The translations under genes and the position numbers were made by a program. A stretch of 64,000 nt of DNA from Bacteroidales bacterium (GTDB taxonomy: Bacteria; Bacteroidota; Bacteroidia; Bacteroidales; WCHB1-69). The notes beneath the pieces are model-generated. The model was given only the letters and a program-made list of their open reading frames with translations, was not told where the DNA came from and searched no databases. Positions 5,686 to 62,822 of the stretch are shown here, in pieces (position 1 is the stretch's first letter; each line of letters starts with the position of its first letter). Location of the stretch: contig JAEETJ010000002.1 in assembly GCA_016290295.1 (NCBI GenBank), positions 79,583-143,582 of the forward strand, in the 5' to 3' direction.

Positions 5686-5690
5686 CAGGG

Positions 5691-5764
5691 TGGTCCCACT
5701 CGGGCTCGAACCAAGGACCCGCTGATTATGAGTCAGCTGCTCTAACCAACTGAGCTATGGGACC
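5691..5764 (-). tRNA. tRNA with CAT anticodon (elongator Met, or Ile2 if lysidine-modified)
   Basis: The reverse complement GGTCCCATAGCTCAGTTGGTTAGAGCAGCTGACTCATAATCAGCGGGTCCTTGGTTCGAGCCCGAGTGGGACCA folds as a cloverleaf. Acceptor GGTCCCA/TGGGACC, anticodon stem GCTGA/TCAGC, loop CTCATAA. CCA is not encoded. A TAtTTTTG box lies upstream. Confidence 0.9.
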
Positions 5765-5968
5765 TGCTTTTGAAAAGCGGATGCAAAAATACAAAAATTT
5801 TCAATACCTCCAACATCCTTGTCGGGAAATGTTTTTTTCTTGTTTCATGGCTTTTTTTTGTTGAATATCTGCAAAAAAATCTTATTTTTGCATCACCGTA
5901 CAGGAGTGTTTTGTGTGGACGGATATGGCTATTTGCATGATAATTATGCACATTCAATATAAGTCAAT

Positions 5969-7672
5969 ATGACCTTATTCACTTTCTTGAAACTTTTAGG
6001 CTGCCTGGCTCTGCTGATGTTTGGTATGAAGATGATGAGCGAGGCACTGCAAAAGCTGACTGGTGGCGGCTTGCGTAAGGTGCTCGGCACCATGACCACC
6101 AATCGTGTAACAGGTATTTTTACGGGAGCCCTCGTAACCACTGCTGTGCAGTCATCCACTGCCACCACTGTGATGACGGTAAGCTTTGTCAATGCGGGAC
6201 TGCTAACCTTAAGCCAGGCCATTTCGGTCATCATGGGTGCTAATATCGGTACTACTGTGACCGCATGGATTATTGCCCTATTTGGCTTCAGTATTCCCAT
6301 GTCCGCTTTGGTTTTTCCTTTGTTTGCTCTGGGTTTGGCCATGTCGTATATGAAAAGCACTGGTGCCAAATCGTTCGGTGAGTTCATCTTCGGCTTTTCC
6401 TTCCTGTTCTTGGGTATCGCCACCTTACGAGAGAATGCCATTGCCATGGACTTGCCGCATAATGAGTTTGTGATGAGCTTCTTTACTTCAACGGCAAAAT
6501 TAGGTTTTCTTTCCTACCTTATTTTCATGTTGATTGGTGGTGTACTGACAGTTTGTGTGCAGTCGTCCGTGGCTATCATGGCTATTACCATGATCCTCTG
6601 CTCTACGGGTGTGGCCGATATTTATCAGGGCATAGCTTTGGTGCTTGGCGAAAATATAGGTACGACTGTTACCTCCAACATTGTGGCGTTGAAAGCCAGT
6701 CCGTCTGCCCGTCGTGCTGCCCTCTCGCACCTGACTTTCAACATGTTTGGTGTATGCTGGGTGCTGCTGGTCTTCCGTCCGTTCATCTCTTTGGTCTGTT
6801 CCATAGTGGGCTATGATACCAAAGCGGATGTGTCGCAAGATCCGAATGCCGCAGAGCGTATCAATTATGCCTTGTGTGCTTTCCATACCGCTTTCAATGT
6901 GTGTAATGTGCTGATATTGGTGTGGTTTATTCCTCTTCTTGAGAAATTTGTCTGTAAGGTTATCAAAGGCGGTGAAGAAGACGAGGATATGCGCCTGCGC
7001 TTCATCTCGGGTGGTCTGCTTTCCACCGCCGAGCTGTCATTGCTCGAAGCCCGTAAGGAAATCAACCATTTTGCCATGCGTGCCCACCGTATGTTTGGCT
7101 TCGTGCCCGAATTGCTGAAACTGGAAAATGGCGACGAGTTCTCCAAATTGTTTGCCCGTATAGAGAAATATGAAGGTATTAGCGACAATATGGAGGTGGA
7201 AATCGCCAATTACCTGAACCGTGTGGCGGAAGGGAAGTTGAGTGGTGAAAGTAAGATGCAGATTCGCTGTATGTTGCGTGAGATCTCTGAAATAGAAAGT
7301 ATTTGTGATAGCTGCTACAATATGAGCCGTGTCATCAATAGGAAGTTCAAAGCTAAAGAGCGTTTCACCGAAGATCAGTTAGGTCATATCCGCCATATGT
7401 GGGGACTTTGTGATCAGGCTTTGACCCAAATGGAGAAGATTTTAGCCGATTCAGATAATCTGGTGGATCCACACGAGTCCTTGAATATTGAGAATGAAAT
7501 TAATATTTATCGTACCCAGCTGAAAGAGAATAATGTGGTGGATATCAACGAAAAGAAATACGATTATCAGACGGGTGTGAACTACATGGACATTATCGGC
7601 GATAGCGAGAAATTAGGCGACTATGCCATCAATGTGGTTGAAGCACATACGCAAGTGAAACTCACCACTTAA
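5969..7672 (+). CDS. Na/Pi cotransporter family protein with C-terminal PhoU-like region
   Basis: MFGMKMMSEALQKLTGG.LRKVL...TGALVTTAVQSSTATTVM, with a second QSSVA repeat, is the Na/Pi-cotransporter II-related signature. Confidence 0.85.
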   Translation: MTLFTFLKLLGCLALLMFGMKMMSEALQKLTGGGLRKVLGTMTTNRVTGIFTGALVTTAVQSSTATTVMTVSFVNAGLLTLSQAISVIMGANIGTTVTAWIIALFGFSIPMSALVFPLFALGLAMSYMKSTGAKSFGEFIFGFSFLFLGIATLRENAIAMDLPHNEFVMSFFTSTAKLGFLSYLIFMLIGGVLTVCVQSSVAIMAITMILCSTGVADIYQGIALVLGENIGTTVTSNIVALKASPSARRAALSHLTFNMFGVCWVLLVFRPFISLVCSIVGYDTKADVSQDPNAAERINYALCAFHTAFNVCNVLILVWFIPLLEKFVCKVIKGGEEDEDMRLRFISGGLLSTAELSLLEARKEINHFAMRAHRMFGFVPELLKLENGDEFSKLFARIEKYEGISDNMEVEIANYLNRVAEGKLSGESKMQIRCMLREISEIESICDSCYNMSRVINRKFKAKERFTEDQLGHIRHMWGLCDQALTQMEKILADSDNLVDPHESLNIENEINIYRTQLKENNVVDINEKKYDYQTGVNYMDIIGDSEKLGDYAINVVEAHTQVKLTT

Positions 7673-44869: not shown

Positions 44870-44943
44870 CGGGGTGTGGCGCAGTTGGCTAGCGCACTTG
44901 CATGGGGTGCAAGGGGTCGAAAGTTCGAGTCTTTTCACCCCGA
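44870..44943 (+). tRNA. tRNA-Pro (GGG anticodon)
   Basis: CGGGGTG-TG-GCGC-AGTTGGCTA-GCGC-A-CTTGC-ATGGGGT-GCAAG-GGGTC-GAAAG-TTCGAGT-CTTTT-CACCCCG-A folds as a cloverleaf. A TATTTTTG box lies about 28 nt upstream. CCA is not encoded. Confidence 0.9.
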
Positions 44944-44956
44944 CGAAAAAACAAAA

Positions 44957-47752: not shown

Positions 47753-48709
47753 ATGTTTCGATCTATCCAGTCAAAATTATTTTTTCAAGTTGTGTGTGTG
47801 TTGGCATTGCTGGTGTGGGCGGTGCTGCAATTCATAAGTTCAACGCACTTTCTGCAACCGCCTTCCTCTACCACCTTCTGGCAGATGTTGGCCCCATTGC
47901 AGGGTCATTATGGCGGCATGATAACCATCATCAGTTTTGGCCTGCTCTTGCAAATTCTGCTTACGGATGTCTATTATTTCCGTGGCGGTTTCGGTGACAA
48001 CCACCACCTGATGGTGTGCATTTGGTTCCTCCTGATTCTGTGTTGCGGAGGCTTTGTTTCGGAATTATCTCCCGTTTGGTTCTCCAACCTTATTTTGGCT
48101 ATCATTATCAGTTTGAATTTCGATTACGACAATGGCAATCTGAAAAGCAAGGACCTTCTGTCGGGCATCCTCACGGGCGTGGCGTCCCTGTTTTATCCTC
48201 CCATGCTTTTTGTGGCGTTTTTTGTAATCAGTTCATTGATAATCAACAGATTCAGCAAGTATAAAGATATCATTGTTTATATATTAGGCATCCTGCTGGT
48301 ATATCTCTATATCTTTTGTTTTTATTTCTTCTGCGATAGATTGCCGGAGTTGTACCAGTTTGTGTCGGAGATACGTTTCTACAATACCTTTGTGATGACA
48401 GAAATGTACTCATGGAAGGTTATGGTGCTGATAGCCACAACGGTGGTGTCTTTGCTTTATGCTACCGTGGTGCTGAAAATACAATATGACAGTAAGACGG
48501 TGCTTCTTCGTAAAAGATTGATAACCATACATTTGATTACCATGTCATGTCTGCTGCTGATGGTATTCTCTCCTTTTGACTTTCATCAGGCTGTAGGTTT
48601 TCTGTTGATACCTATGACCTTGTATTACAGCATGTTGTCGCAGATGAAAGAACATCCGTTCATTAATGACCTTATGATGTTGATTTTTGTAGTTGCCTTA
48701 TGCCTTTAA
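47753..48709 (+). CDS. Multi-pass integral membrane protein of unknown function
   Basis: 318 aa with at least 8 hydrophobic helices. It overlaps the rnhB start by 10 nt. Confidence 0.65.
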   Translation: MFRSIQSKLFFQVVCVLALLVWAVLQFISSTHFLQPPSSTTFWQMLAPLQGHYGGMITIISFGLLLQILLTDVYYFRGGFGDNHHLMVCIWFLLILCCGGFVSELSPVWFSNLILAIIISLNFDYDNGNLKSKDLLSGILTGVASLFYPPMLFVAFFVISSLIINRFSKYKDIIVYILGILLVYLYIFCFYFFCDRLPELYQFVSEIRFYNTFVMTEMYSWKVMVLIATTVVSLLYATVVLKIQYDSKTVLLRKRLITIHLITMSCLLLMVFSPFDFHQAVGFLLIPMTLYYSMLSQMKEHPFINDLMMLIFVVALCL

Positions 48710-49302
48710 AGAGTCATTATTCTGATACTGAAATACTTGAATGCGGATGCGATGAAGTAGGGCGGGGCTGTATTGCCGGACCGGTTTTCGCGGCTGCGGT
48801 GATTTTGCCTTACAATTATCAGAATGAGGAAATCAATGATTCCAAGCAGCTTTCAGCCGCCAAGAGAAACCAAATGCGAATGATTATTGAGCGCGATGCC
48901 TTGGCTTGGGCGGTAGGGCAGGTGTCTGAGAAGGAAATCGACAAGATTAACATTTTGCAGGCCTCTTTTTTGGCGATGACACGTGCCGTAGAGCAGCTGA
49001 CTCTCAAACCGCAGCTGTTGCTGATTGACGGCAATCGCTTTGTCAACCGCACGGACATTCCCTATAAGACTGTGGTCAAGGGAGATGCTACTTATCTGTC
49101 CATTGCCGCCGCCTCGATTTTGGCCAAATGTTACCGCGACGAGCTGATGGAGCGTTTGCACGAGGAATATCCCATGTATGGCTGGAAGGACAACAAAGGC
49201 TACCCCACGCCTTACCATCAGGAAGCGGTGCTGAAATACGGCAACAGTCCCTACCACCGCCGCAGCTTCCAGCTGAAGCGACAATTGCGGCTGGAGTTCT
49301 AA
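48700..49302 (+). CDS. rnhB: Ribonuclease HII
   Basis: CGCDEVGRGCIAGPVFAAAV, DSK.L, IDG.., ASI.AK..RD are RNase HII motifs. Confidence 0.9.
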   Translation: MPLKSHYSDTEILECGCDEVGRGCIAGPVFAAAVILPYNYQNEEINDSKQLSAAKRNQMRMIIERDALAWAVGQVSEKEIDKINILQASFLAMTRAVEQLTLKPQLLLIDGNRFVNRTDIPYKTVVKGDATYLSIAAASILAKCYRDELMERLHEEYPMYGWKDNKGYPTPYHQEAVLKYGNSPYHRRSFQLKRQLRLEF

Positions 49303-49622: not shown

Positions 49623-50789
49623 ATGACAGAACTTTTACCTCTCGAAATGGCAAGCAATAAGTATAAGGACGATTTTGAAACAGTGTATGGCATCATTTCT
49701 GCCCATCGCAACCATGTCATACAGCAGGTCAACGGTGAAGCGGTGTTGATGGCATGGGAAGTGGGAGGGTTTGTTTTCAGCAAGTTGAAGACATCGGCAT
49801 GGGGTAGTGGTGTTGTCCGTCAGTTGGCTGAATACATCCATACACAGAACCCATCTGTGAGGGGTTGGAGCTACCGCTCCATATACAAGATGGTTCAGTT
49901 TTATGAAACCTATTCATTTCCGACATTTACCGAACTGATTGGCAAGGTCAAATCTCAAATTGTGCCAGTCGAAATGGCACAAATCCCCAATCAACAAATA
50001 ATGCCGATTCAATCGGCACAAATATTTTCTCAGACAATTGTGCCAATCCGATTGGCACAAATTCCCGACGTGCTGCTCTCTACAGGTTGGAGCAACCATC
50101 AGCTCATCTTGAACTACTGCAAGACGGATGAGCAACGACTGTTCTATATGCTGTATGCAGGTCGCGAACGATTGGAGTATAAAGAACTTGACCGTGCCAT
50201 CAAGACCGATGCGATGTCGGCCATCCTAGGTGGCCACGATGTACAATCGCAAGCGATGCAAACTCTGTATCCGCAGGCACCGCTACTATTCAAAGATCGT
50301 GTCAGTTTGGATATGCTTGGATTACCTCTTGATTACAAAGAAGCGAGGCTTCGCAAATCTATTATTGTGCACATGAAGGATTTTATATTGGAGATGGGCA
50401 AAGACTTCCTCTTCATTGACGAAGAGCATCGGCTTGTGGTAGGTGGTAAAACTTTTAAGGTTGATTTGTTGTTCTACCACAGGTTGTTGCAATGCATGGT
50501 TGCTATTGAGCTTAAAACATCAGAGTTCCAGCCCAGAGATCTCGGACAGTTGGAATTCTATCTTGAGGCTTTGGATCAGGAGGAACGTCGTTCCTGCGAG
50601 AATCCTAGCATTGGCATCCTGTTGTGTAAGGAAGCCAACATGGAGGTAGTGCGTTTCGCATTGAACCGAAGCATGTCGCCCACCATGGTGGCACAGTATA
50701 AAGAGCAGCTGCAGGTGGGAGGGGTAATACAGCGTAGTTTGGTCGAGTTTTGTAGATTTTTGGATAATGGTGGAAAGGTCGTGAAATAG
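49623..50789 (+). CDS. YhcG-family PDDEXK nuclease (DUF1016), copy 1
   Basis: N-terminal YhcG-like helical domain. C-terminal restriction-endonuclease-like core FKVDLLFYHRLLQCMVAIELKTSEF.PRDLGQLEFYL. Confidence 0.8.
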   Translation: MTELLPLEMASNKYKDDFETVYGIISAHRNHVIQQVNGEAVLMAWEVGGFVFSKLKTSAWGSGVVRQLAEYIHTQNPSVRGWSYRSIYKMVQFYETYSFPTFTELIGKVKSQIVPVEMAQIPNQQIMPIQSAQIFSQTIVPIRLAQIPDVLLSTGWSNHQLILNYCKTDEQRLFYMLYAGRERLEYKELDRAIKTDAMSAILGGHDVQSQAMQTLYPQAPLLFKDRVSLDMLGLPLDYKEARLRKSIIVHMKDFILEMGKDFLFIDEEHRLVVGGKTFKVDLLFYHRLLQCMVAIELKTSEFQPRDLGQLEFYLEALDQEERRSCENPSIGILLCKEANMEVVRFALNRSMSPTMVAQYKEQLQVGGVIQRSLVEFCRFLDNGGKVVK

Positions 50790-50869: not shown

Positions 50870-51712
50870 TCACATCTTCCAGCATCTCTTTAATTGCTCC
50901 AACTTGCAACGATAAGCCGATGTCTTGGCCAGGCGGATGATATTGGTTTTGTAATCGGGTGGGAGATACTTATCCATTTCAGTGACAATTCCGTCTGGCA
51001 TGCCATAAAACGCTTCCGCAATGCCGCCTGCGATACAGGCTTGGGTGTCGCTGTCACCGCCAAGCGATACTGCCAGTCTGACGCTTGACTCATAGTCTGT
51101 GCTGTCTATGAATGCGATGATGGCTTCTGGCACCGACTTTTGGCAAGACACAAAGAAACCATATTGGGGACGGATTTGGTCGCAAGTACGGTTAAGGTCG
51201 TATTCGTATTTCTTTGAAATATAATTCTTTATCTCTTCCTTGCTTTTCCCGTTGCGAGCCATAAAGATGGCTGCCGCCGTGGCTTGTGCCCCTTTGATGC
51301 CTTCGGGATGATTGTGCGTGATGCTGGCAGAGATTTCCGCCACCCGTTCCGTTTCCTCCAAGCTGTCGAAGAACCAGCCTACAGCGCTCACACGCATAGC
51401 GGAGCCATTGCCGTAGCTGTTATAAGGTCTTCGCACGCCATCTTTCCAGATATTTTCAGGGTAAAACAGCCATTGCAAAAACCTGCCACCATAGCCCGCA
51501 CCGGAATCATAGTTCCCAAACTTTACCATTTTCTGTTCTAATACCTCATGAGATAGAGTAGGGTCGTCCATCAGCCATTCCGCCACCGCCATAGTCATCA
51601 CCGAATCATCAGTATAGCGGCTTCTGCGACCAAATAATTCAAAATCAGTATCTTTAATACTATTAAATTCAAATGGAGAACCAATGATATCTCCTGCAAT
51701 CGCGCCTAACAT
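50870..51712 (-). CDS. ADP-ribosylglycohydrolase (DraG/ARH/Tri1-like) family protein
   Basis: MLGAIAGDIIGSPFEF, YTDDSVMT, GNGSAMR, SLGGDSDTQACIAGGIAEAFYG are ARH family motifs. Confidence 0.85.
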   Translation of the reverse strand: MLGAIAGDIIGSPFEFNSIKDTDFELFGRRSRYTDDSVMTMAVAEWLMDDPTLSHEVLEQKMVKFGNYDSGAGYGGRFLQWLFYPENIWKDGVRRPYNSYGNGSAMRVSAVGWFFDSLEETERVAEISASITHNHPEGIKGAQATAAAIFMARNGKSKEEIKNYISKKYEYDLNRTCDQIRPQYGFFVSCQKSVPEAIIAFIDSTDYESSVRLAVSLGGDSDTQACIAGGIAEAFYGMPDGIVTEMDKYLPPDYKTNIIRLAKTSAYRCKLEQLKRCWKM

Positions 51713-52877: not shown

Positions 52878-54959
52878 CTATTCTGTCGTGTTAATTCTTC
52901 GAACCCTTCGGCTAAATATCTGGAACTCTGTACTGTTTTTGTCTGCCTCATTAAGTATCTTTTCAAAGTCGCTGTCAGATACAGTTTTATTATTGAAAGC
53001 TACAACAATGGCATTTTTCTCTTCTTCCTCGTCCATCTCAACATGCAAATTGCTGGCAAGTGCTTCCTTCCGAATCATCATGTATGCGGGCAAGTACTCT
53101 GAACAGAGTTTTACCAAATGACGGCATGTTTCAATATTTGAATATCCAAGTTTCTGATTGAGTTGCGCTTCAAACAGGTATTGTTTTTTATCGATAGCAA
53201 TCTTCTCATCTGAATTGTTCGAAATTTCACGAATAAATTTGACCACACTGTCAGCTTCTTCGTATCGTTCCAAACGATACAGCGCTTTTGCCTTGACAAA
53301 CAGGGCTTCGAGACAGGGACTTTTTTTCTGTGCTGTCTTTTTGTCAAATACCATGTCCGAATATCCTATAGCTTCCTCATACCGGCCTTTGTAGAGGCAT
53401 AGCACCGCATTCAAAAAGTCACAAGTCATGCTGCAATCCTTTAGCAACGGGACATTCTTTGTAGCATCATGCAGACATTCATCGTCAAGCATCACATCGA
53501 ACATCCGTTTAGCTACGAGAGCTGCATTTCTATAGTCACCGCTCTTGATTTTGGCAACGACTTGTTTCATGCACACCTGAACAGCACCATCATAGTCATG
53601 CTTATAAAAATATGTGGAGAAATCCTTACCAAACTTGTACTCCTCATCTATCATGGGCACATCGTTAAACGAGTTGGCAAAAGCCCTGATCTCGGCATTC
53701 TGTTTGATATGATATGAGCGCAACTTGTTGCTCAATGTAAGTCCATCTAATGAACGCATACGGCTGATGGCTACATACGCCTGTCCAGGAGCAAATGTTC
53801 CTCGAGTCAAATCGAAATGCATACGGTCAAAAGTCATTCCCTGCGACTTATGTATCGTGATAGCCCAAGCCAGTTTCAAAGGATATTGTGTAAAACTTCC
53901 CACAACCTTCGATTCAACCTTTCGGGTATCCTCATTATATACACTTTCCTTGCTCTCCCACACCATCTTTTCCACTTTGAGTGTTTTGCCATTTTCCAGG
54001 ACCACAACAATTTTGTCATCGGTCAATTTAGTCACAATGGCAATGGTTCCATTCACCACACCTCTTGGATAATCGTTGCGGCAGAAGATTACCTGTGCAC
54101 CAACTTTCAGCTGCAGTTTAACCGGCACTGGCGCATCTTGCATCTTGAATTTTCCATCTAACTCCCCCTCATAACAGAATTCCTCCGCTTCTATCTCGTC
54201 TAACTTCATCTCATTAATGCTTTCAGCAATTCTATTATAAGCCGTCAGGGTAACCGAATAATCGCCAACTTTGTCATCAGAACTCACATGTTCATTAATG
54301 ATTTCAAAATCCTCTTGAATATTTTCTCCTACACGCATACGGTCTAAAACATCCAAAAAAGGCTGATCTTTCTGACGATAAACCTTCTGAAACTCTATCT
54401 TGGGCAGATTCATTCGTTTCAATGCGTACGCTTTGTAGAAATAAGGAGTTCCATTTCCATAAAAGTCTCGGAGCATATCTTCATCTGCCGTACCCTGCTT
54501 ATATACGGGTGGCAATTGAAATAAGTCGCCTACAAAAACAACCTGCTTGCCCCCGAAAGGTAAATGCGAATAAGTCAAAGTCCTGAGAAATCTATCCATA
54601 CCGTCCACCATATCGGCTCTTACCATCGAAGCCTCATCAATGATAATGGTATCTGTTTTCTCCAGCACGCGTCTTTTCTCTAACGACACTTCCATGTGGG
54701 TTGTAGGACCAATTATCTCCAATGGAAAGCCAAAGAAGGAATGCATAGTTTGACCTCCAACATTGAGTGCTGCTATGCCTGTGGGAGCAAGAACCAAAAA
54801 GTTCTTGTTGATTTCCTTTTGGATTCTCTTCACAAAAGTGGTTTTACCCGTACCAGCCTTCCCTGTGATGAAAAGACTGATGTTGGTATATGCCACAAGA
54901 TCGTATGCTTTCTGCTGCTCGAAGTTGGTTTTGTCGAATGCTATTTCTTTGTTTTCCAT
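52878..54959 (-). CDS. Pif1/RecD-family SF1B helicase with a roughly 250-aa TPR-like helical C-terminal extension
   Basis: FITGKAGTGKTTF (Walker A), LAPTGIAALNVGGQTMHSFFG, IIIDEASMV (Walker B), GDLFQLPPV, ITIHKSQGMTFD, AYVAISR. Start moved to MENKE (54959) because the longer ORF runs through the promoter module. Confidence 0.85.
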   Translation of the reverse strand: MENKEIAFDKTNFEQQKAYDLVAYTNISLFITGKAGTGKTTFVKRIQKEINKNFLVLAPTGIAALNVGGQTMHSFFGFPLEIIGPTTHMEVSLEKRRVLEKTDTIIIDEASMVRADMVDGMDRFLRTLTYSHLPFGGKQVVFVGDLFQLPPVYKQGTADEDMLRDFYGNGTPYFYKAYALKRMNLPKIEFQKVYRQKDQPFLDVLDRMRVGENIQEDFEIINEHVSSDDKVGDYSVTLTAYNRIAESINEMKLDEIEAEEFCYEGELDGKFKMQDAPVPVKLQLKVGAQVIFCRNDYPRGVVNGTIAIVTKLTDDKIVVVLENGKTLKVEKMVWESKESVYNEDTRKVESKVVGSFTQYPLKLAWAITIHKSQGMTFDRMHFDLTRGTFAPGQAYVAISRMRSLDGLTLSNKLRSYHIKQNAEIRAFANSFNDVPMIDEEYKFGKDFSTYFYKHDYDGAVQVCMKQVVAKIKSGDYRNAALVAKRMFDVMLDDECLHDATKNVPLLKDCSMTCDFLNAVLCLYKGRYEEAIGYSDMVFDKKTAQKKSPCLEALFVKAKALYRLERYEEADSVVKFIREISNNSDEKIAIDKKQYLFEAQLNQKLGYSNIETCRHLVKLCSEYLPAYMMIRKEALASNLHVEMDEEEEKNAIVVAFNNKTVSDSDFEKILNEADKNSTEFQIFSRRVRRINTTE

Positions 54960-54977
54960 ATTGGCGTGTTGTATTTT

Positions 54978-55023
54978 GTTTTCGGGTGCAAAAGTACAAC
55001 CGCCTCGCGCAACCAATTTGCGC
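54978..55023 (-). promoter_or_regulatory. Conserved promoter/operator module 'A' upstream of the Pif1-like helicase
   Basis: Minus strand: GCGCAAATTGGTTGCGCGAGGCGGTTGTACTTTTGCACCCGAAAAC. The palindrome GCGCAA-N5-TTGCGC lies 10 nt upstream of the TACTTTTG -7 box. 39/46 identical to module B. Confidence 0.7.
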
Positions 55024-55096: not shown

Positions 55097-55849
55097 ATGG
55101 AACCTTTCATGATATATTCCGGAAAACATGTATTTCACTTTACAAAATTCGAATCTGCGTTGAGAATCATTGCAACCCAATCCTTAAAGTTTGGCCGTTT
55201 TGAGAATATGAATGATATTGCAGAAGTGAAAAGAGAAGTTTATGGTATTATTTCTGCCGATATTATAGATAGTGAATTGTCAAAATATCAATCCATAAGT
55301 CTTACATTAGACAAGCCCTCGCACCGTGGCTTCAAAATTGACCCTCTATGGGGTCACTATGCACAAGGAGGTAATGGTGCATGTTTGGTTTTTGATAAAG
55401 ACAAGTTATCACAAAGGGTTGTTGAACAATTTGGTGAAAAAGCAAAAATTGCTCCAATCAATTACTTGCCTAATTTTTCAAATGCAATATTCACGGAGGG
55501 AGATTCTCAAGAAGCAGTAGAAAAATATATAGAAGATAATCTAGAGGACATTTTCTTCACCAAATCTCTTGACTGGGAATATGAACAAGAACTGAGGATC
55601 TTAATCAAAGAGGACAGGGAAAATGAGAAATACCTTTGTTGGGATGATGCATTAATTGCCGTTATACTTTGCCTGCCAAAAGTCATCAACTACAAAGAGT
55701 CGCCTGAATTCAGAATTATGAAATCCATGTTGCCGGCCATCCCTATTCTTAATTATACGACATCTTTGGGGAACAAAGAATTACTCGATGAGAACGGGGG
55801 AAAAGTGTGTGACATTATTGGTGAGGATTTACAAATACTCTTTGAATGA
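55097..55849 (+). CDS. DUF2971 family protein
   Basis: ..VFHFTKFESALRII....LKFGRFENMNDIAE..., ..DPLWGHYAQGGNGACLVFDK.., ..DWEYEQELRIL follow the DUF2971 pattern (lyhYt...., f.s....NDp.E, mWshYa....G.cl.F, EkEwR). Confidence 0.65.
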   Translation: MEPFMIYSGKHVFHFTKFESALRIIATQSLKFGRFENMNDIAEVKREVYGIISADIIDSELSKYQSISLTLDKPSHRGFKIDPLWGHYAQGGNGACLVFDKDKLSQRVVEQFGEKAKIAPINYLPNFSNAIFTEGDSQEAVEKYIEDNLEDIFFTKSLDWEYEQELRILIKEDRENEKYLCWDDALIAVILCLPKVINYKESPEFRIMKSMLPAIPILNYTTSLGNKELLDENGGKVCDIIGEDLQILFE

Positions 55850-55870: not shown

Positions 55871-56860
55871 TTAATCTGCCAAATTAAACAATCGGTTAAT
55901 GCGGTTTTCTTTAGTTCCAAATCTTCTATGTTGGTATCTTCCCTCTTTTTGAGATTCTATTGACGTCTTTTTTATCCAATTGTAATAATCATCCGTATCA
56001 CCATTTTTATCCAATGTTGGTTGACAAATATGAAAATTACAATCTTTTTGAGCCTTTATTTCTCTTTCAACAGGGCCGAAAACACTAAAACCACCAGATG
56101 CCTCTATCATCAAATTGTTTGTCAAAACAAATCTGTCATGCCAACCTTCTCCTTGTGCTGGAATTTGATATAATGTAAAAGAAAAATCCAAATTAGGTCT
56201 GATATCTTTAAGCATTTCAAGTATTTCTTTGTAAAAGGAGAGCCCCAATTCTTCATTATCAAAATTGTTACCTCCAACTCCACTAAAAATAGAAATATCA
56301 AAAGGGATACTTAATGATTGAGGTAATATGTTTTTAAAAAGATGCTTTAAATGATATTGGATATACTTTCTATCATTCAAGATATGAGGATCTATAAGGA
56401 TAAGAGAATTACAGGGGATAGAAAAATACTCTTTTAATCCATAATAATCCCCTTTCTGATGAAATTTAAAATGTATTTTTTTCCCTGAAACGAGATGTTT
56501 ATTTCTCGATAGCATTTCCGCATTCAAGCTTAGTACACCTTTTTGTTGAGCAAACGTTTCACAATAACTCTGGTCTTTATCAAGCAAAAAGACTGAGCAT
56601 AATTTCTCAATGGAAAGACTATCGTCTTCAATTATTGCATCAATCTGCCCTTTTTCGGCAAAGCAACTTCCTCCGGTTTTATGCCATAAAATACTCAAAA
56701 AATCATCTTGGCCAAAATCCTCAATCGGTATTTCTGCTTGAACATTATTTGCTTGCAAGACACAGAATAAGTCCCATGCATTAGGACCAAAAATATCCAT
56801 GTCAAGTTTCTTTACAGCTTTCCAGAAACCGTATTGAAGAAAGATTTTTCCCCTTTTCAT
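55871..56860 (-). CDS. Protein with C-terminal MIT_C-like phospholipase-D-fold domain (HxR variant); candidate effector
   Basis: LILIDPHILNDRKYIQYHLKHLF ... FSFTLYQIP...GWHDRFVLTNNLMIEASGGFSVF parallels, from memory, the MITD1 C-terminal domain (IVDPYIRS.HQL.NFLRF ... [23 protein letters not shown]). The start overlaps the ATPase stop (ATGA). Confidence 0.6.
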   Translation of the reverse strand: MKRGKIFLQYGFWKAVKKLDMDIFGPNAWDLFCVLQANNVQAEIPIEDFGQDDFLSILWHKTGGSCFAEKGQIDAIIEDDSLSIEKLCSVFLLDKDQSYCETFAQQKGVLSLNAEMLSRNKHLVSGKKIHFKFHQKGDYYGLKEYFSIPCNSLILIDPHILNDRKYIQYHLKHLFKNILPQSLSIPFDISIFSGVGGNNFDNEELGLSFYKEILEMLKDIRPNLDFSFTLYQIPAQGEGWHDRFVLTNNLMIEASGGFSVFGPVEREIKAQKDCNFHICQPTLDKNGDTDDYYNWIKKTSIESQKEGRYQHRRFGTKENRINRLFNLAD

Positions 56861-58497
56861 TTTGCCTCCATCTTCATTTTTAACAAACGCATAGACAAAT
56901 CTGTCGCCTCATCAAAAAAACCTGGGCCAAATGGCTCATTCAACCGTCCGTCTTCAAGAACCTTTATCTGACGATTATGGGAAATACCTTCTTCATCTTT
57001 TTCCACATAATTGAGTGAAATGTCATTTGGCATAAGTACATTTTCTTTATCTGCAACCATCACCTGAAGTTTACGAATCAAATATTCGCTATGGGTTTCA
57101 ATGATGAAGTGGATATTGTATTTTTGAAATGCTTCCACAAACATATCGGCAAGAAGCGACTGATATTTTGGGTGGAGATGAATTTCGGGCTCTTCTACAC
57201 AAATGATTTGTTTTGGTTTGTTCCAATATCCTTTATGAGGCTTGCCTTTATACCAAGGAATTTCTATTTCATTTTCAATATTTTTTATGTCAGGTGATTT
57301 AATTGCATTGTCAATTAGCAACAATAAGGACACTAATTGAGTAATGCCATAACCTTCGTCTGCAAGCAACCTGTATTCTTTTTCTTTTTTTAGATATATT
57401 TTAACACCACCTTCCTCATCACCTTCTACACTAACTTTACCAAGATTAAACCTCTCTTTACCCAACCAACGATTCATAAAGCCACCAGGTTTATGATAAT
57501 ATGGATCGGCAGATAAAACATCGAAATGCTCCTCGAATGTTACTCGCATACTATTAAAAACGCACAGAGCATGGCTCATTTTATTGTCGTTCTCAACTGA
57601 ATATGAGCGTCGTATTGCTGCAGAATTCGAATCTATATATTTTACATTACAAGTAAACCAAGGGGAATATACTTCATTTGTGACTAATTCAAAAAAATGT
57701 TCTATAATTATGCCTTTTGGAAAATATTTATCCATCATTTCCTCCATCTCTTCATCAGTCTTACAGTATTTCTTCCATTCTTCAATATCACTATTCCGTT
57801 TATCAATCCATTCATACCAGTTATTTAGAAGTTTAATATTATAATCTTCTATATTGATTTTATTTTCTTCTAATTGCTTTCTGGTATTTTCCAAATCACG
57901 AGTTAACCTTAATGCAACTGACGTGTTCTCATATTTTTTGTATAAATCTTTCTTGAATACTTCAATGCCTCTGATCAATTTAAGATACTGGCTTGCCAAT
58001 GAGAAGTTGTTGAAATTTTGAGTGATGTTTTCTTTGTATATTTTTTTATTTCCGATTCCTCTTGGTGTTGTGTCTTTTTCAAGAATAATACTTCCATCAA
58101 TTTTTTCAATCGTATATCTACAAAGATGCCCATCATTAAGAGTATCAGCTTTCTTGCTTTTGAAATATCGCCTGACATATACTTCTTCTTGAAGATAATT
58201 AGACCATATTTTATATGAAATTTCTATCTCATTACTATTTGCCTGTTTGTGTAATACTTTCTTAAAATTGCCGAGGTCAAGGTCTTTTGAATACAATTTG
58301 AGAGCTGTATGTATAGTCTCTTTTTCATGTGGCAATTTGCTCAATAGCATAAGAGCTTTTGTCATAGAACTCTTCCCTGCACTATTGCATCCTGTCAGTA
58401 CGGTGATAGGGGCAAGTTCAAAATCTGCACCGTCTTCACCAAATGAGCGAAAGTTTTTCAAACTAAAAACTGGGTTCATGTTTTTATTATTGTTCAT
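56857..58497 (-). CDS. ABC-type (AAA_15/AAA_21-like, OLD/PtuA/AriA-like) ATPase with DUF3696-like C-terminal tail
   Basis: LKNFRSFG...ITVLTGCNSAGKSS (Walker A), long K/E-rich helical insertion, DEGYGITQLVSLLLL (signature-like), IICVEEPEIHLHP (Walker B/D-loop), IIETHSEYLIRKLQ (H-loop), C-terminal ..GRLNEPFGPGFFDE. Start moved to the ATG at 58497. Confidence 0.85.
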   Translation of the reverse strand: MNNNKNMNPVFSLKNFRSFGEDGADFELAPITVLTGCNSAGKSSMTKALMLLSKLPHEKETIHTALKLYSKDLDLGNFKKVLHKQANSNEIEISYKIWSNYLQEEVYVRRYFKSKKADTLNDGHLCRYTIEKIDGSIILEKDTTPRGIGNKKIYKENITQNFNNFSLASQYLKLIRGIEVFKKDLYKKYENTSVALRLTRDLENTRKQLEENKINIEDYNIKLLNNWYEWIDKRNSDIEEWKKYCKTDEEMEEMMDKYFPKGIIIEHFFELVTNEVYSPWFTCNVKYIDSNSAAIRRSYSVENDNKMSHALCVFNSMRVTFEEHFDVLSADPYYHKPGGFMNRWLGKERFNLGKVSVEGDEEGGVKIYLKKEKEYRLLADEGYGITQLVSLLLLIDNAIKSPDIKNIENEIEIPWYKGKPHKGYWNKPKQIICVEEPEIHLHPKYQSLLADMFVEAFQKYNIHFIIETHSEYLIRKLQVMVADKENVLMPNDISLNYVEKDEEGISHNRQIKVLEDGRLNEPFGPGFFDEATDLSMRLLKMKMEAK

Positions 58498-58511: not shown

Positions 58512-58557
58512 GTTTTCGTTTGCAAAAGTACAACCTTCTTGCGCAACTTATTTGCGC
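58512..58557 (-). promoter_or_regulatory. Conserved promoter/operator module 'B' upstream of the ATPase operon (overlaps the YhcG-2 stop codon)
   Basis: Minus strand: GCGCAAATAAGTTGCGCAAGAAGGTTGTACTTTTGCAAACGAAAAC, with the same palindrome and spacing as module A. Confidence 0.7.
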
Positions 58558-59750
58558 GAATTTTCTTTTTTCTTTTGCTCCAACTCTTTTACCGTGCGCT
58601 CCACCACTTCTTCCAGTTGATAAGTGGATACGCCAAGAGGTTTGTTGATGTCACGCAGAGACCATTCCACAACGGTTTTGTCAGTTGATTTGCAAATAAG
58701 CAAACCCACAGTTGGATTGTCACCGTCGCCACGCATCAACTCGTCGATAGCAGTCACATAGAAATTCAGTTTGCCGGCAAATTCGGGGATGAATTTCACC
58801 ACCTTTAATTCGACGACAACATAACGGTGCTGGGGTATGTGATAGAATAGCAAGTCGGGGAAGAAAGTCTGACCTCCGGGCATTTGCAGCTCCATCTGAC
58901 GGCCCACATACGAAAAGCCCTGGCCTAACTCCATCAGAAATCGTGTAACATTGGATACCAACGCATCTTCTAGGTCCTGTTCCTCGTATTCTTCTCCCAT
59001 GGAGAGAAATTCAAAATGGTAGGGATCTTTCAGCAGCTCTTTGGCCAATTGGCTCTGTGGAGCAGGTAGTGTATGCTCGAAGTTAGTAAGTGCTGCACCT
59101 TGACTTCCGAATAGATTGGCTGCCACTTGGGCTTCAAGTCTGCTGCGACTCCAGCCCTCTTCCACAACCTTGTTAATATAGAACATAGCCTCATCAAGAG
59201 ACTGGCATTTGGAGATAATCAGAATATGACAGCCCCATGGTATAAGACCAAATGTATCAGGAAATTGCAATTGGCCAACGACTTGTTGACCTTTTTCGTC
59301 AACAGTTTGTTGACGATTTGCAGTTTCTAATTCGTCAACAACTTGTTGACGAATTTCAACATCTTGATTATCACCCGTCTTGGATGCTAAAGCAATACCA
59401 AATTCGTCACCAACTTGGGGACGAATTGCAAATCTTTCACTATAAAATGCATACCAACGTTTCATGTATTTGAGGTTGGTTACAGAGAAACCTTTTTCGT
59501 TGGGAAATGCCGTTTTCAAATCAAGACACAACTGATTAAAGAAGCCATTTCCCCATTTGCTTTCAGCACGAAGTTCAACTATGTCGCGTCCTAAGCTCCA
59601 ATAAAACTCAAGCATGGCAGTGTTTACACGGACCGCCGCTTTTACTTGGCTTTGGCGAAAACGCTGCTTGATGTCAGCCATCCATTGTACGTAACCTTCG
59701 TCGGTGGTCATTTCTTCTCGGAATATAAATGTTGGTTTTTCATTCATCAT
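58548..59750 (-). CDS. YhcG-family PDDEXK nuclease (DUF1016), copy 2
   Basis: N-terminal ..VNTAMLEFYWSLGRDIV...WG.GFFNQL..DLK..FP..KGFS..NL.YM..WY. C-terminal FFPDLLFYHIPQHRYVVVELKVVKF.PEFAGKLNFYV. Start set at the ATG at 59750 (TATTTTTG box upstream). Confidence 0.8.
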   Translation of the reverse strand: MMNEKPTFIFREEMTTDEGYVQWMADIKQRFRQSQVKAAVRVNTAMLEFYWSLGRDIVELRAESKWGNGFFNQLCLDLKTAFPNEKGFSVTNLKYMKRWYAFYSERFAIRPQVGDEFGIALASKTGDNQDVEIRQQVVDELETANRQQTVDEKGQQVVGQLQFPDTFGLIPWGCHILIISKCQSLDEAMFYINKVVEEGWSRSRLEAQVAANLFGSQGAALTNFEHTLPAPQSQLAKELLKDPYHFEFLSMGEEYEEQDLEDALVSNVTRFLMELGQGFSYVGRQMELQMPGGQTFFPDLLFYHIPQHRYVVVELKVVKFIPEFAGKLNFYVTAIDELMRGDGDNPTVGLLICKSTDKTVVEWSLRDINKPLGVSTYQLEEVVERTVKELEQKKKENSRK

Positions 59751-59789
59751 TATTAAAGAATTTGTGAAGTGCAAAAATACAAATAAATT

Positions 59790-60860
59790 CTATTTCAAGG
59801 AGTGATATGCTTGAAGTTGTGCTGCCACATAATCTTTTACCTTCTGTTGTATATTGGTAGGAGAAAGTACAATCAAGTCTTTGCCAAATGAGGTCAATTC
59901 CCTGATAAGTTCATAATTCTCGATGCATTCAATGGAAAAGAAGGCCCCACCTTTCAACATTGGATACTGACGACGCAGTTCAGCTTCTTTTTCATCATGA
60001 AAGGGTCGTGTAGGTTGAGATTCGTGTATTGGTTTTGTAATAACGTAATTCTTGGAATAATCACTTACCCAGAAGATAATGGTTTGCAATGGCCTGTCAT
60101 CATAAAGAGATACACCTATAATATCCTCAAAGCGTTCATTCAGATTACCGGGGTATGGGATATATCGATGATTTGATAGCATATCGAATTGGTCAATCTG
60201 GTCCAACCTGAAATTTAGTAATCTACCAGAGTCCTCTGCGGAACCAAAGAGATACCATCTGCGATTGTACTCTTTCAATAAGTGAGGATGAATAATCACC
60301 TGTTTTACATTGTCGAGGTCATCAAAAGTATGATAATGCAACTTCAGCACCTGTCGTTGCGAAATAGCGGTAAAAAGTTCCCCGAACAGAGTGGTTTTCT
60401 CTAAAGGATTCTTGGTAAAGGAAACGATTTGGCGCTTTTCTTTAAGATTCAAGCTGCCTTTCAACTTTTCCAGTCCGTCAAGATTTGGAAGACCGTCAAA
60501 CTGTCCCAGCAACGACAATGCTTCCGAAAGCAGATACTTCTCATCCTCGGTCAATGGCTTCTTGAAAATAGAGAATGATGGGTCTTTATAACGCAAACAT
60601 TCTTTTTTCACCGTGAGATTTGGATTCTTTTGGCTGACCGCATCAATTTGATAATGCTCAATATCTGCAAGAAAGGGGCCCGCTTTTTCTATATAGTTGA
60701 TGTCATATTGGATTGTGCGAATGCTGACTTTCATTTTCCTCTCTTCTAATTCTTCATTCACCAATTCACATATATCGGCAACAGAATAGTTCCTATATCG
60801 ATTGGCAAGCAACTTGTCAATGATGTAATATCGCGTAACGGCGTTTTTGTTGGCTGGCAT
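59790..60860 (-). CDS. WYL-domain transcriptional regulator (wHTH-WYL-WCX; BrxR/CapW-like architecture)
   Basis: N-terminal HTH (..YSVADICELVNEEL....VSIRTIQYDINYIE), WYL core (VLKLHYHTF.....VIIHPHLLKEYNRRWYLFG) and a C-terminal extension. Confidence 0.8.
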   Translation of the reverse strand: MPANKNAVTRYYIIDKLLANRYRNYSVADICELVNEELEERKMKVSIRTIQYDINYIEKAGPFLADIEHYQIDAVSQKNPNLTVKKECLRYKDPSFSIFKKPLTEDEKYLLSEALSLLGQFDGLPNLDGLEKLKGSLNLKEKRQIVSFTKNPLEKTTLFGELFTAISQRQVLKLHYHTFDDLDNVKQVIIHPHLLKEYNRRWYLFGSAEDSGRLLNFRLDQIDQFDMLSNHRYIPYPGNLNERFEDIIGVSLYDDRPLQTIIFWVSDYSKNYVITKPIHESQPTRPFHDEKEAELRRQYPMLKGGAFFSIECIENYELIRELTSFGKDLIVLSPTNIQQKVKDYVAAQLQAYHSLK

Positions 60861-60890: not shown

Positions 60891-60936
60891 TTTTTTGTTT
60901 GCAAAAGTACGACCGCCTTGTGCAACCTATTTGCGT
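60891..60936 (-). promoter_or_regulatory. Conserved promoter/operator module 'C' upstream of the WYL regulator gene
   Basis: Minus strand: ACGCAAATAGGTTGCACAAGGCGGTCGTACTTTTGCAAACAAAAAA. Same layout as A and B with slightly degenerate half-sites. A second palindrome, TATGTAT-N9-ATACATA (60938-60961), lies just upstream. Confidence 0.65.
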
Positions 60937-61865: not shown

Positions 61866-61938
61866 CTTATAATGTTGATTTTTAGATGATTAATAATATT
61901 TAGCCCTCGGTTTTAAGAATTGGGTGTTCTATTTTTGC
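61866..61938 (+). promoter_or_regulatory. Conserved promoter module 'D', copy 3 (73 nt)
   Basis: cttataatgttgatttttagatgattaataatatttagccctcggttttaagaattgggtgttctatttttgc. TATTTTTG box at 61930-61937. Confidence 0.65.
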
Positions 61939-61964
61939 AAGACAATCATTCAATAACTACACAA

Positions 61965-62822
61965 ATGGAAAATAGTATTGTATTAAATCAAAATAATGGT
62001 GAAATCATTTTCTACCAGCCTGACAATAATATACGTCTGGAAGTGATGTTGCGAGAAGATACGGTGTGGCTTAATCGACAACAGATTGCCGAGTTGTTTC
62101 ATAGGGACATCAAGACTATAGGTAAACACATACAAAATGCCAATGCGGAAGAATTAAAAGGAATTCCAACTGTCGCAAAATTTGCGACAGTTCAACAAGA
62201 GGGTAATCGTCTAATAAACAGAGAAATAGAATATTTTAATTTAGATATGATTATATCTGTGGGGTATCGTGTTAAATCAAAACAAGGGATTCTCTTTCGT
62301 CAATGGGCAAATGCTGTTCTTAAGGAATACCTGTTGCGTGGATATGTTATCAACCAAAGAGTAGAACAGTTGGAGCAGCGAGTTGCTAAAACGGAAGAGC
62401 AAATTGGTTTCTTTGTTCGCACTGCATTGCCTCCCGTTGAGGGCGTTTTTTACGACGGACAGGTCTTTGATGCCTACACCTTTGTGGCAGATTTGATACG
62501 CTCGGCTCATGAACGAGTCGTCTTCATCGACAACTATGTGGACGATTCGGTATTGAAGACTCTCACCAAACGGAATGAAGGAGTTAGTTCCAAAATCATT
62601 ACCCGAAAGATATCGGAAACATTGCAGGTGGATTTAGAACGCCACAACCGACAGTACTCATCAATAGACATCAACACTTCCGACCGTTACCATGATCGAT
62701 TCCTCATTATTGATAACACAGTCTATCATCTTGGAGCCTCCCTCAAAGATTTGGGCAAGAAACTTTTCGCATTCAATAAGATGGAGGTGCTCGCAGAAGA
62801 AATTATCTCTTTTGCCAGCTGA
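61965..62822 (+). CDS. RhuM-family protein with C-terminal degenerate PLD-like (HxR) motif
   Basis: ..VAKFATVQQEGNRLINREIEYFNLDMIISVGYRVKSKQGILFRQWANAVLKEYLLRGYVIN is the RhuM core. The C-terminal YHDRFLIIDNTVYHLGASLKDLGKK resembles HxK-x4-D-x6-G with R replacing K. Start moved to the ATG at 61965. Confidence 0.85.
   Translation: MENSIVLNQNNGEIIFYQPDNNIRLEVMLREDTVWLNRQQIAELFHRDIKTIGKHIQNANAEELKGIPTVAKFATVQQEGNRLINREIEYFNLDMIISVGYRVKSKQGILFRQWANAVLKEYLLRGYVINQRVEQLEQRVAKTEEQIGFFVRTALPPVEGVFYDGQVFDAYTFVADLIRSAHERVVFIDNYVDDSVLKTLTKRNEGVSSKIITRKISETLQVDLERHNRQYSSIDINTSDRYHDRFLIIDNTVYHLGASLKDLGKKLFAFNKMEVLAEEIISFAS

Follow-up and report, generated by a model that had tools for sequence, protein, structure and literature searches.

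The question raised by this locus is whether two overlapping genes, one for an ABC (ATP-binding cassette) ATPase, the other for a 329-residue protein with a fold of the phospholipase D (PLD) type, belong to a named anti-phage system or make up a unit of their own. Both lie in a stretch of 64,000 nucleotides from a Bacteroidales bacterium (GenBank assembly GCA_016290295.1, contig JAEETJ010000002.1, positions 79,583 to 143,582), referred to below as the window, the coordinates given being those of the window throughout. A sequence-only reading, made without database searches, had proposed an uncharacterised two-gene defence module. The answer that we consider moderately probable is that the pair forms the constant core of an anti-phage or anti-mobile-element module repressed by a WYL-domain regulator, which would be related to the NsnB–NsnC half of the Menshen system and would act without NsnA. 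Menshen (NsnABC) was reportedly described by Millman et al. in 2022.

Both reading frames are present at the coordinates first given for them, and the ATPase stop and the partner start share 4 bp, read as ATGA (56857-56860); the translational coupling claimed on this ground is supported by conservation of the overlap among relatives. The related loci, obtained from metagenomes and metagenome-assembled genomes (MAGs) and annotated with the window's own proteins as queries, stem from uncultured Bacteroidales MAGs and gut or rumen metagenomes, the search of a genome collection having yielded two of them. The first 36 loci gave a tally of 25 non-redundant ones, and L038-L042 were read from Pfam gene tables. 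The ATPase gene lies directly upstream of the partner in 24 of 24 judged loci, 19 of which have also retained the 4-bp overlap; the pair is therefore no chance juxtaposition. A WYL gene is found upstream in 12 of the 13 loci with enough upstream sequence and a gene for a PIF1-family helicase downstream in 10 of 18 judged loci, as well as in two later lineages (L038 and L041), three helicase subtypes being represented overall. Loci whose partner is as little as about 25-30% identical still show this layout, and it persists where the surroundings are unrelated: L005 has the pair in a mobilisable element beside genes for a relaxase, a NikA-like protein and DUF3853, L017 (a Prolixibacteraceae MAG) at a chromosomal site near McrB-like and DUF4011 helicase genes, and several Bacteroidales MAGs provide further sites, most loci being chromosomal islands without mobility genes. 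Based on this synteny with the WYL gene in varied surroundings, the unit consists of the WYL regulator, the ATPase and the PLD partner, often together with the PIF1-family helicase. Of the proposed two-gene module, the pair thus stood and the restriction to two genes did not, the WYL gene being linked and its putative operator recurring at the PIF1 gene.

In Menshen, NsnA combines ParB-DUF262 with ParBDB, and in NsnB a DUF3696 tail is added to an ABC ATPase (PMC12065111). No DGQQR/DUF262 signature was found anywhere in the window, no DUF262 gene or signature stands beside the pair in the non-redundant loci (0/25), and none is listed in the Pfam tables of L038-L042. The sole DGQQR match among the loci is in an open reading frame (ORF) of 88 residues in L025, about 7 kb away from the pair and on the opposite strand.

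The assignment of the ATPase to the OLD-type ABC ATPases with a DUF3696-like tail is backed by Pfam (AAA_15 2.8e-20, AAA_21 6.9e-14, DUF3696 2.8e-07) as well as by PADLOC, in which the best match is NsnB of Menshen (4.2e-40; 137 bits, split into two pieces), with PDC-M55A at 1.1e-33 and the HEC-03 ATPase at 1e-24, the latter match taking in the C-terminal region; the AriA, PtuA and GajA matches are far weaker (E 1e-11 to 1e-22). There are also weak SMC_N/RecF matches, and a sequence search of the Protein Data Bank (PDB) returned nothing at E<=1e-3. Every motif that had been quoted is present and invariant in an alignment of the ATPase with six relatives: the Walker A LTGCNSAGKSS (aa 34-44), the signature-like ADEGYG (aa 380-384), CVEEPExHLHP (aa 433-443), ETHSEYLIRKLQ (aa 467-478) and, in the tail, GRLxEPFGPGFFDE. 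NsnB proteins are marked by a Walker B with EN, a Q-loop Arg and a GxG replacing SGG (PMC12065111). The window ATPase likewise has the GxG, seen as GYG; an invariant Arg297 is located where the Q-loop would be expected, and Walker B has EE. Homologues of this ATPase make up more than 1661 clusters, the nearest being 61% identical overall, one identical database entry aside. An ATPase identical to that of the window is encoded by L037 (GCA_024712465.1, contig JAMQYI012014189.1), a 5.6-kb contig of an NCBI metagenome assembly with the window's gene order, i.e. ORF6N-WYL-YhcG-ATPase.

With regard to the start of the ATPase, an alternative upstream codon, TTG at 58533, was dropped: a Bacteroidota -7 box, TACTTTTG, occupies 58523-58530 and would thus fall downstream of that codon. 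The ATG at 58497, also the choice of the sequence-only reading, is therefore the likely start.

The ATPase contains a hypervariable central cassette, corresponding to the insert regions of ABC ATPases. Nucleotide similarity to three loci, L021, L014 and L001, amounts to 78-87% in the flanks and is not detectable inside the cassette, ending at the same points in all three, i.e. at about 58367 and at 57204-57219. At the amino-acid level these closest loci are 26-34% identical to the window in the cassette, as opposed to 63-89% at the two ends of the ATPase and 69-91% for the surrounding genes. The same pattern holds over 119 cluster representatives: their median identity to the window ATPase is 90% at the N end (residues 1-45) and 78% at the C end (residues 431-546); in residues 46-430 it is 36%, with a maximum of 52%. 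In L021, the closest relative of all, the amino-acid identity is 80-90% for the partner, 86% for the WYL protein, 86-91% for PIF1 and 89% for the ATPase tail; within the rest of the ATPase it is 63% for the N-terminal part (aa 1-110) and 68% for the C-terminal part (aa 371-485), with 28% for residues 111-370 between them. A constant frame around a cassette-like insert is what would be expected of a surface meeting fast-evolving phage factors; being hypervariable in a constant frame, the insert is therefore read as a putative sensor.

Concerning the partner, the sequence-only reading had placed an MIT_C/PLD fold with an HxR motif in the C-terminal half, on the strength of an alignment with MITD1. 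The AlphaFold2 model built from a 30-sequence alignment (predicted local distance difference test, pLDDT, 90.8; predicted TM-score, pTM, 0.91) has as its top Foldseek match in the PDB MITD1 (4a5z, MIT_C domain; TMt 0.67, E 6.2e-7, probability 1.00), the next ones being FAM83A, Tdp1, bacterial PLDs and the SauUSI nuclease, with phosphatidylserine synthase also among them. The Pfam domain MIT_C is matched by 31 of 67 diverse relatives (best 4.4e-08), and with the family profile MITD1 is the sole match in the PDB (E 0.0054). The alignment with MITD1 was reproduced by HMMER with the family profile; the family's 'IiDnYil' stands opposite 'IEDPYIR' of MITD1 and 'fHDRvIiTNn..GaGFdlF' opposite a stretch ending in 'GRGLDYF', so that D157 and H241-x-R243 of the partner align with the IEDPYI and IHDR motifs. 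The partner motifs read LILIDPHIL and WHDRFVLTNN, with D157, H241, R243, N248 and G257 invariant or nearly so. In the alignment of the 67 diverse relatives, 19-34% identical, G108, D157, P180, H241, R243 and G257 are invariant, and D157, H241 and R243 are so also among 30 partner homologues. The canonical PLD motif HxK(x)4D(x)6G[ST]xN is absent from the partner, which reads H241-D-R243-F-V-L-T247-N248 with neither Lys nor an Asp at +7, and a Pfam search for PLDc gave no match in it. The partner is regarded as a probable nuclease of the PLD fold.

The partner has 36 close homologue clusters, none of them named or carrying a Pfam domain, the nearest being 86% identical, and a tblastn search of plasmids with it gave no match. 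In an exhaustive profile search the family grows to 938 representative clusters (at the 50% identity level) with a threshold of E<=1e-3 and to 371 with one of E<=1e-10; among the matches listed, most have a length of 300-400 aa. Among the 67 diverse relatives three match the PADLOC model of NsnC weakly (best 5.6e-05), the window protein itself not being one of them, and three match the BrxL model. NsnC of Menshen consists of an inactive-PIN (inPIN) N-domain and a variable effector (PMC12065111); single-linkage clustering of the partner family, whether by the whole protein or by the N-domain, merged nearly all sequences and separated no NsnC-like subgroup. Modelled alone, the partner's N-domain (pLDDT 81) is a small Rossmann-like beta-alpha fold. 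The partner falls into two sub-clades, of at least 52% and of about 30% identity, which occur together with much the same ATPase C-termini and PIF1 genes (L032-L036), and the effector has therefore been exchanged or has diverged quickly too. As a separate observation, L020 encodes (241-1368, protein P0168) a CobW-type GTPase fused in one chain to an MIT_C-like domain, i.e. the same effector fold with a different NTPase partner.

The WYL gene, whose product is of the BrxR-like winged helix-turn-helix (wHTH)-WYL-WCX type and is likely the repressor of the module, is recognised by Pfam (WYL 7e-12; WCX 7.7e-4, below its cut-off) and PADLOC (WYL 4.7e-20). A conserved operator-bearing promoter had been claimed for the pair; it was found again and, moreover, not at the ATPase only, since the palindrome recurs at the WYL and PIF1 promoters. 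The exact 17-nt palindrome occurs twice in the window, together with one copy with two mismatches, all located 44-48 nt upstream of three start codons (45 nt before the PIF1 ATG at 54962), the gene-proximal arm doubling as the -33 TTG. A 29-nt motif common to the WYL, ATPase and PIF1 upstream regions is present three times in the window against zero expected. Since its 3' core also precedes unrelated genes, it was considered whether this motif is just a generic Bacteroidota -33/-7 promoter; after alignment of the upstream regions this was dropped, because the palindrome has co-varying arms, keeps a constant spacing to the starts of all three genes (WYL, ATPase and PIF1) and shows a 34-fold enrichment in front of them. 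If up to one mismatch is allowed, 30 of the 44 promoters of these genes bear it, in most cases with its end 36-49 nt ahead of the start codon; this corresponds to 7.5 per kb compared with 0.22 per kb in the remaining DNA of the loci.

Both arms of the palindrome change together between lineages, and the arm type tracks the similarity of the WYL protein to that of the window: the arms are GCGCAA/TTGCGC at a WYL identity of 69-86%, GCGAAA/TTTCGC at 65-69% and ACGAAC/GTTCGT at 43-48%. At the WYL promoter, perfect palindromes are seen in L021, L001, L030, L026, L011 and L038; the site at the ATPase promoter has an equivalent in most relatives, and that at the PIF1 promoter is kept in L021, L001, L014, L029, L032, L035 and L038. 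The operator thus defines a small regulon, to which the WYL protein is predicted to bind. A BREX island is repressed by the WYL protein BrxR, which at two of the island's promoters binds inverted repeats whose spacer is 5 bp long (PMC9122601). In L011, the gene immediately downstream of the pair encodes a prokaryotic viperin (pVip, 5.2e-69; 5741-6676) and is preceded by GCGCAA-N5-TTGCGC in perfect form, so that in this locus the WYL regulon appears to include a gene already known as antiviral. In the window, the DUF2971 gene diverges from PIF1, and the palindrome in their common 134-bp intergenic region could regulate both. The coordinates of all these features, along with those of the neighbouring genes, are collected in Table 1.

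Table 1. Features of the locus and its surroundings, in window coordinates
Feature	Position	Strand	Basis or remark
RNase HII	48700-49302		
Second, different YhcG/DUF1016 PDDEXK gene	49623-50789	plus	island edge, just after RNase HII
ADP-ribosylglycohydrolase	50870-51712	minus	
PIF1-family superfamily 1B (SF1B) helicase with C-terminal TPR-like extension	52878-54962	minus	Pfam PIF1 1.1e-33, PADLOC PDC-S68 1.5e-23
-7 box of PIF1	54989-54996		
Perfect palindromic operator GCGCAA-N5-TTGCGC, divergent PIF1/DUF2971 intergenic region	55007-55023	.	
DUF2971 gene between partner and PIF1	55097-55849	plus	Pfam DUF2971 1e-10, PADLOC PDC-S31 1.9e-13
Effector candidate (partner), 329 aa	55871-56860	minus	ORF, fold prediction
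Codons of His241-Asp242-Arg243 (HxR motif of PLD-like site)	56132-56140	minus	alignments
Codon of Asp157	56390-56392	minus	alignments
Partner MIT_C-type PLD domain, aa ~126-300, then helical tail		minus	AlphaFold2 model, Foldseek
Partner N-domain, small alpha/beta, aa 1-125	56486-56860	minus	AlphaFold2 model
ABC (OLD/AAA_15-type) ATPase with DUF3696 C-terminal tail, NsnB-like	56857-58497	minus	Pfam, PADLOC
Hypervariable central cassette of ATPase (ABC-ATPase insert regions), about codons 45-430	57220-58366	minus	nucleotide and amino-acid comparison
Perfect palindromic operator GCGCAA-N5-TTGCGC, ATPase promoter	58541-58557	.	ends 44 nt before ATG 58497
YhcG/DUF1016 PDDEXK gene between WYL and ATPase	58548-59774	minus	Pfam YhcG_C 6.8e-54, PADLOC PDC-S02 2.5e-133
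WYL-domain transcription regulator (wHTH-WYL-WCX type, BrxR-like)	59790-60860	minus	Pfam, PADLOC
-7 box TACTTTTG of WYL promoter	60902-60909		
Operator ACGCAA-ATAGG-TTGCAC, WYL promoter	60920-60936	.	two mismatches from perfect palindrome
RhuM-like protein	61920-62822	plus	Virulence_RhuM 8.1e-24, PADLOC PDC-S05 1.4e-120

The island extends from just after the RNase HII gene to about 62.8 kb and comprises the second YhcG, the ADP-ribosylglycohydrolase, PIF1, DUF2971, the pair, YhcG, WYL, ORF6N and the RhuM-like gene. The window was compared with the PADLOC models, and the neighbours match the defence candidates PDC-S02, PDC-S05, PDC-S31 and PDC-S68, NsnB being, as mentioned above, the best match of the ATPase; a WYL regulator and a PDDEXK nuclease upstream of the pair in a defence-like island, as had been described, are thus confirmed by Pfam and PADLOC. 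The YhcG gene was dropped as a system component and is regarded as an embedded passenger, because it is absent from L021, where the WYL–ATPase gap is empty, is replaced elsewhere and has no palindrome at its own promoter. The gap is filled by a different, unrelated YhcG type in L014 (5146-6276), L030 and L038, by DUF234 (PDC-S27) and AAA_14-DUF4143 (PDC-S01) genes in L008 (3149-5806), by four small ORFs in L017 (3309-4842) and by a gene for 451 aa in L041 (5646-7001). In the terms of Payne et al. (10.1101/2024.01.29.577857), this position is a hotspot of embedding.

The DUF2971 neighbour is found in the closer relatives L001, L021, L023 and L024 and also in L038-L040. In the regions L005 8983-12503 and L033 2138-4168, the helicase following the pair is PDC-M16A (6.8e-196); in L005 it starts 1 nt after the partner stop and is accompanied by PDC-M16B (DUF7017/S1CSD-TOTE-2, 1.2e-140). 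Since it belongs to a PADLOC candidate system, PDC-M16, the PIF1 neighbours may be separate co-regulated defence genes rather than subunits. It should also be mentioned that the C-terminus of the RhuM-like protein bears a second HDR-type PLD-like domain, 'RYHDRFLIIDNTVYHLGASLKDLG' (PLDc_2 E 0.014, VPA1262_N 1.9e-07), the island thus having two proteins with H-D-R PLD-like motifs, and that an ADP-ribosylglycohydrolase is present near the pair also in L001 (14646-15554) and L018 (3925-4854; partner about 31% identical). Genes for tRNA-Met (CAT, 5689-5764) and tRNA-Pro (GGG, 44870-44944) are present in the window, neither of them abutting the island, and no integrase was seen among the scanned genes at 41.6-64 kb.

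The gene coupling, the domain identities, the conserved residues, the pattern of variability and the operator architecture, all observed, suggest a course of events in which we infer every biochemical step. In the uninfected cell, a WYL dimer on the palindromes of the three promoters would keep expression low, and a ligand arising from infection or DNA damage would release it. The effector would be held by the ATPase oligomer, the DUF3696 tails of the one binding the N-domain of the other, in the way proposed for NsnB4-NsnC2, where pairs of DUF3696 tails are predicted to clamp the N-domain of NsnC (PMC12065111). The hypervariable insert of the ATPase may recognise a phage-derived protein or nucleic-acid structure, whereupon ATP binding or hydrolysis would release or activate the effector. 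Its single-motif PLD domain would then pair with a second copy to give a complete active site that cuts nucleic acid, so that the phage is stopped or the cell killed; to judge from the MITD1-like PLD nuclease of DruE, the substrate is likely to be DNA. The PIF1-family helicase under the same operator could be a DNA-processing accessory or a separate co-regulated defence gene. DruE (Druantia III-A) has two PLD domains of the MITD1 kind, whose joint nuclease site, with Asp1740, His1999 and Arg2001 among its residues, supports cleavage of single-stranded DNA; Asp and Arg mutants of the site lost defence, D1740A being a nuclease-inactivating mutant in vitro (10.64898/2026.05.13.724313).

Several points weigh against assigning the pair to defence as an NsnB–NsnC relative. 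The defence role is deduced from homology and genomic context, and the window's partner itself gives no direct sequence match in Pfam, PADLOC, NCBIfam or the PDB, its link to NsnC coming from the domain type and the three weak NsnC matches among 67 relatives. Walker B of the ATPase reads VEEPE, i.e. EE and not the EN of NsnB. The N-domain alone, checked by Foldseek for an inactive PIN, matched nothing significant (best E 0.2, CheY-like), the PIN domains of SMG6 and ZC3H12C matching only at E about 2 and TM 0.32-0.38, so that a docking domain of the inactive-PIN kind is unproven. Co-variation between the tail and the N-domain was not seen, the DUF3696 tail being 69-75% identical in L032-L036 and the partner N-domain about 28-30%, which counts mildly against a simple lock-and-key arrangement. 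WYL regulators control DNA-damage responses as well, as in the case of PafBC and DriD. The HxR site of the partner is without the canonical HKD lysine, and MITD1, the owner of the closest solved structure, is a membrane-binding and apparently non-catalytic protein. The last two points, together with the phospholipases D and the phosphatidylserine synthase among the fold matches, could be taken to mean that the partner is not a nuclease and binds, perhaps hydrolyses, membrane phospholipids in the manner of MITD1, its release by the ATPase resulting in membrane damage and abortive infection. We regard this as unlikely, given that Asp157, His241 and Arg243 are invariant over the 67 sequences, which argues for catalysis, that the corresponding Asp and H-x-R of DruE support both DNA cleavage and defence, that Tdp1 and the SauUSI nuclease are also among the fold matches and that the partner sequence shows no sign of a transmembrane segment or a lipid anchor. 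The NsnC effectors of class PB-PLD1, which resemble MIT_C and have an HDR motif besides a conserved Asp/Glu, are likewise classed with nucleases (PMC12065111).

The module might alternatively serve repair under DNA damage or replication stress, with a WYL-induced SMC/RecF-like ATPase, a Tdp1-like phosphodiesterase removing end adducts and the PIF1 helicase. The DNA-damage regulators of the WYL type, the weak SMC_N/RecF matches, Tdp1 among the fold matches of the partner and the linkage of the helicase, under the same operator, in over half of the loci all fit such a role; a hypervariable cassette with sharp, recombination-like boundaries and a patchy distribution on islands and mobile elements would, however, not be expected of repair genes, the best matches of the ATPase are to the defence ATPases NsnB, PDC-M55A, HEC-03, AriA, PtuA and GajA, and the module has defence-candidate genes embedded in it and the same operator before viperin in L011, all of which makes repair improbable. 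Similarly improbable is a selfish addiction or exclusion module, in which a PLD toxin and an ATPase antitoxin would stabilise the island or exclude plasmids and conjugative elements instead of phages. The L005 lineage does reside in a mobilisable element with relaxase, NikA-like and DUF3853 genes, AAA_21 is annotated as a domain related to AbiEii and type IV toxin-antitoxin systems, and HEC-03 is toxic on induction (10.1101/2024.01.29.577857); on the other hand, most loci are chromosomal islands lacking mobility genes, control by the WYL operator and the link to pVip fit immunity better, and such a module would differ from defence in its target, not in its mechanism. Finally, an NsnB-like ATPase and a partner resembling NsnC of the PB-PLD1 class with no DUF262 gene present could be the remnant of a Menshen locus that lost nsnA and no longer functions. 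The NsnA-less layout with WYL recurs, however, in at least 12 independent contexts and down to about 25% partner identity, the ORFs are intact, the catalytic residues invariant and the 4-bp overlap conserved; this points to purifying selection on a working unit and makes decay very improbable.

If the pair is indeed a defence core acting without NsnA, a core of the NsnB–NsnC type would be self-sufficient, its input coming from the ATPase insert and not from a DUF262 DNA sensor. HEC-03, validated without an NsnA-like gene, counts in favour of such independence. The search strategy for Menshen-like systems would have to change accordingly, a survey seeded on DUF262 being blind to such loci. The cassette in a constant ATPase frame would offer natural swaps for mapping trigger specificity in ABC-ATPase defence, and the co-varying operator a clear example of several defence genes joined into one regulon by a single WYL repressor in Bacteroidales of gut and rumen, in which the regulation of defence has, to our knowledge, been little studied. 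The partner is, moreover, a simple protein for testing catalysis by MIT_C-type HxR PLD domains, which bears on human MITD1 and on BrxL. The general architecture is to be expected by specialists; what is noteworthy is the NsnA independence, the cassette-like predicted sensor insert, the co-varying WYL operator and the simplicity of the MIT_C-type protein. All of this taken together would make the locus the type locus of a large, unnamed family absent from PADLOC, Menshen-like without the need for NsnA, with the insert as a direct phage sensor, one WYL repressor coordinating the pair, PIF1 and, in other strains, viperin through a co-evolving operator, and the stand-alone HxR domain as an active nuclease; in this full form the proposal is tentative and, on the whole, rather doubtful. 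Were it true, the eukaryotic MITD1 domain would be placed among the descendants of bacterial immune nucleases.

The comparison with known systems starts with Menshen, for which the survey of Li et al. 2025 was seeded on DUF262 (PMC12065111), NsnA-less loci being therefore beyond its reach. As in Menshen, a two-domain protein comes immediately after an NsnB-like ATPase that has a DUF3696 tail, and this protein has, compared by published description, the make-up of an NsnC of the PB-PLD1 class—an N-domain that is small and of the alpha/beta kind, and a PLD domain that is MIT_C-like and carries the Asp and the H-D/x-R. Unlike Menshen, the locus has no NsnA and is linked instead to a WYL regulator with its own operator, and its partner does not match the PADLOC model of NsnC; without NsnA, the locus is not Menshen as defined. 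HEC-03, on the other hand, is a validated two-gene system of an ABC ATPase and a VapC-like PIN protein, both genes being required (10.1101/2024.01.29.577857). It shares with the window the two-gene composition of an ABC ATPase and a small effector, the lack of a DUF262 sensor and the ATPase match; it differs in its effector, which is a PIN protein and not an MIT_C-type PLD, and none of the HEC-03 models is matched by the partner of the window.

The effector has the same PLD-like fold and Asp...H-x-R constellation as MITD1 (4a5z/2ymb) and the PLD domains of DruE. MIT_C is also carried by the C-termini of BrxL (PMC12065111). Unlike in all three, the domain of the window stands alone, in a single copy per chain and coupled to an ABC ATPase, with no MIT, helicase or Lon-like fusion. 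An oligomer of an OLD-type ABC ATPase that would hold or regulate a nuclease is a feature in common with Septu (PtuAB), PARIS (AriAB) and Gabija (GajAB), and the superfamily 1 (SF1) helicase frequently found next to the pair recalls GajB. Their effectors are, however, HNH, DUF4435/TOPRIM and fused TOPRIM, respectively, whereas that of the window is a PLD, and they are without the DUF3696 tail; no HNH, DUF4435-TOPRIM or TOPRIM domain was found in the partner or the ATPase by Pfam, PADLOC or Foldseek. As to regulation, a WYL + WCX regulator heads the island as in BrxR/CapW, with inverted repeats of 5-bp spacer at its own and further promoters; the operator arms, known here from sequence, are 6 bp compared with 11 bp for BrxR and overlap the Bacteroidota -33 element.

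Based on the above comparison, the claim of the sequence-only reading that the combination is unlike that of any named system holds in so far as the locus is not Menshen, HEC-03, Septu, PARIS or Gabija as these are defined. It was nevertheless too strong, because NsnB is the best match of the ATPase, NsnC effectors of class PB-PLD1 exist and HEC-03 provides a precedent. Judged by its genes and domains, the locus is a relative of Menshen without the sensor gene, with the logic of ATPase, tail and effector that it is predicted to share with both Menshen and HEC-03.

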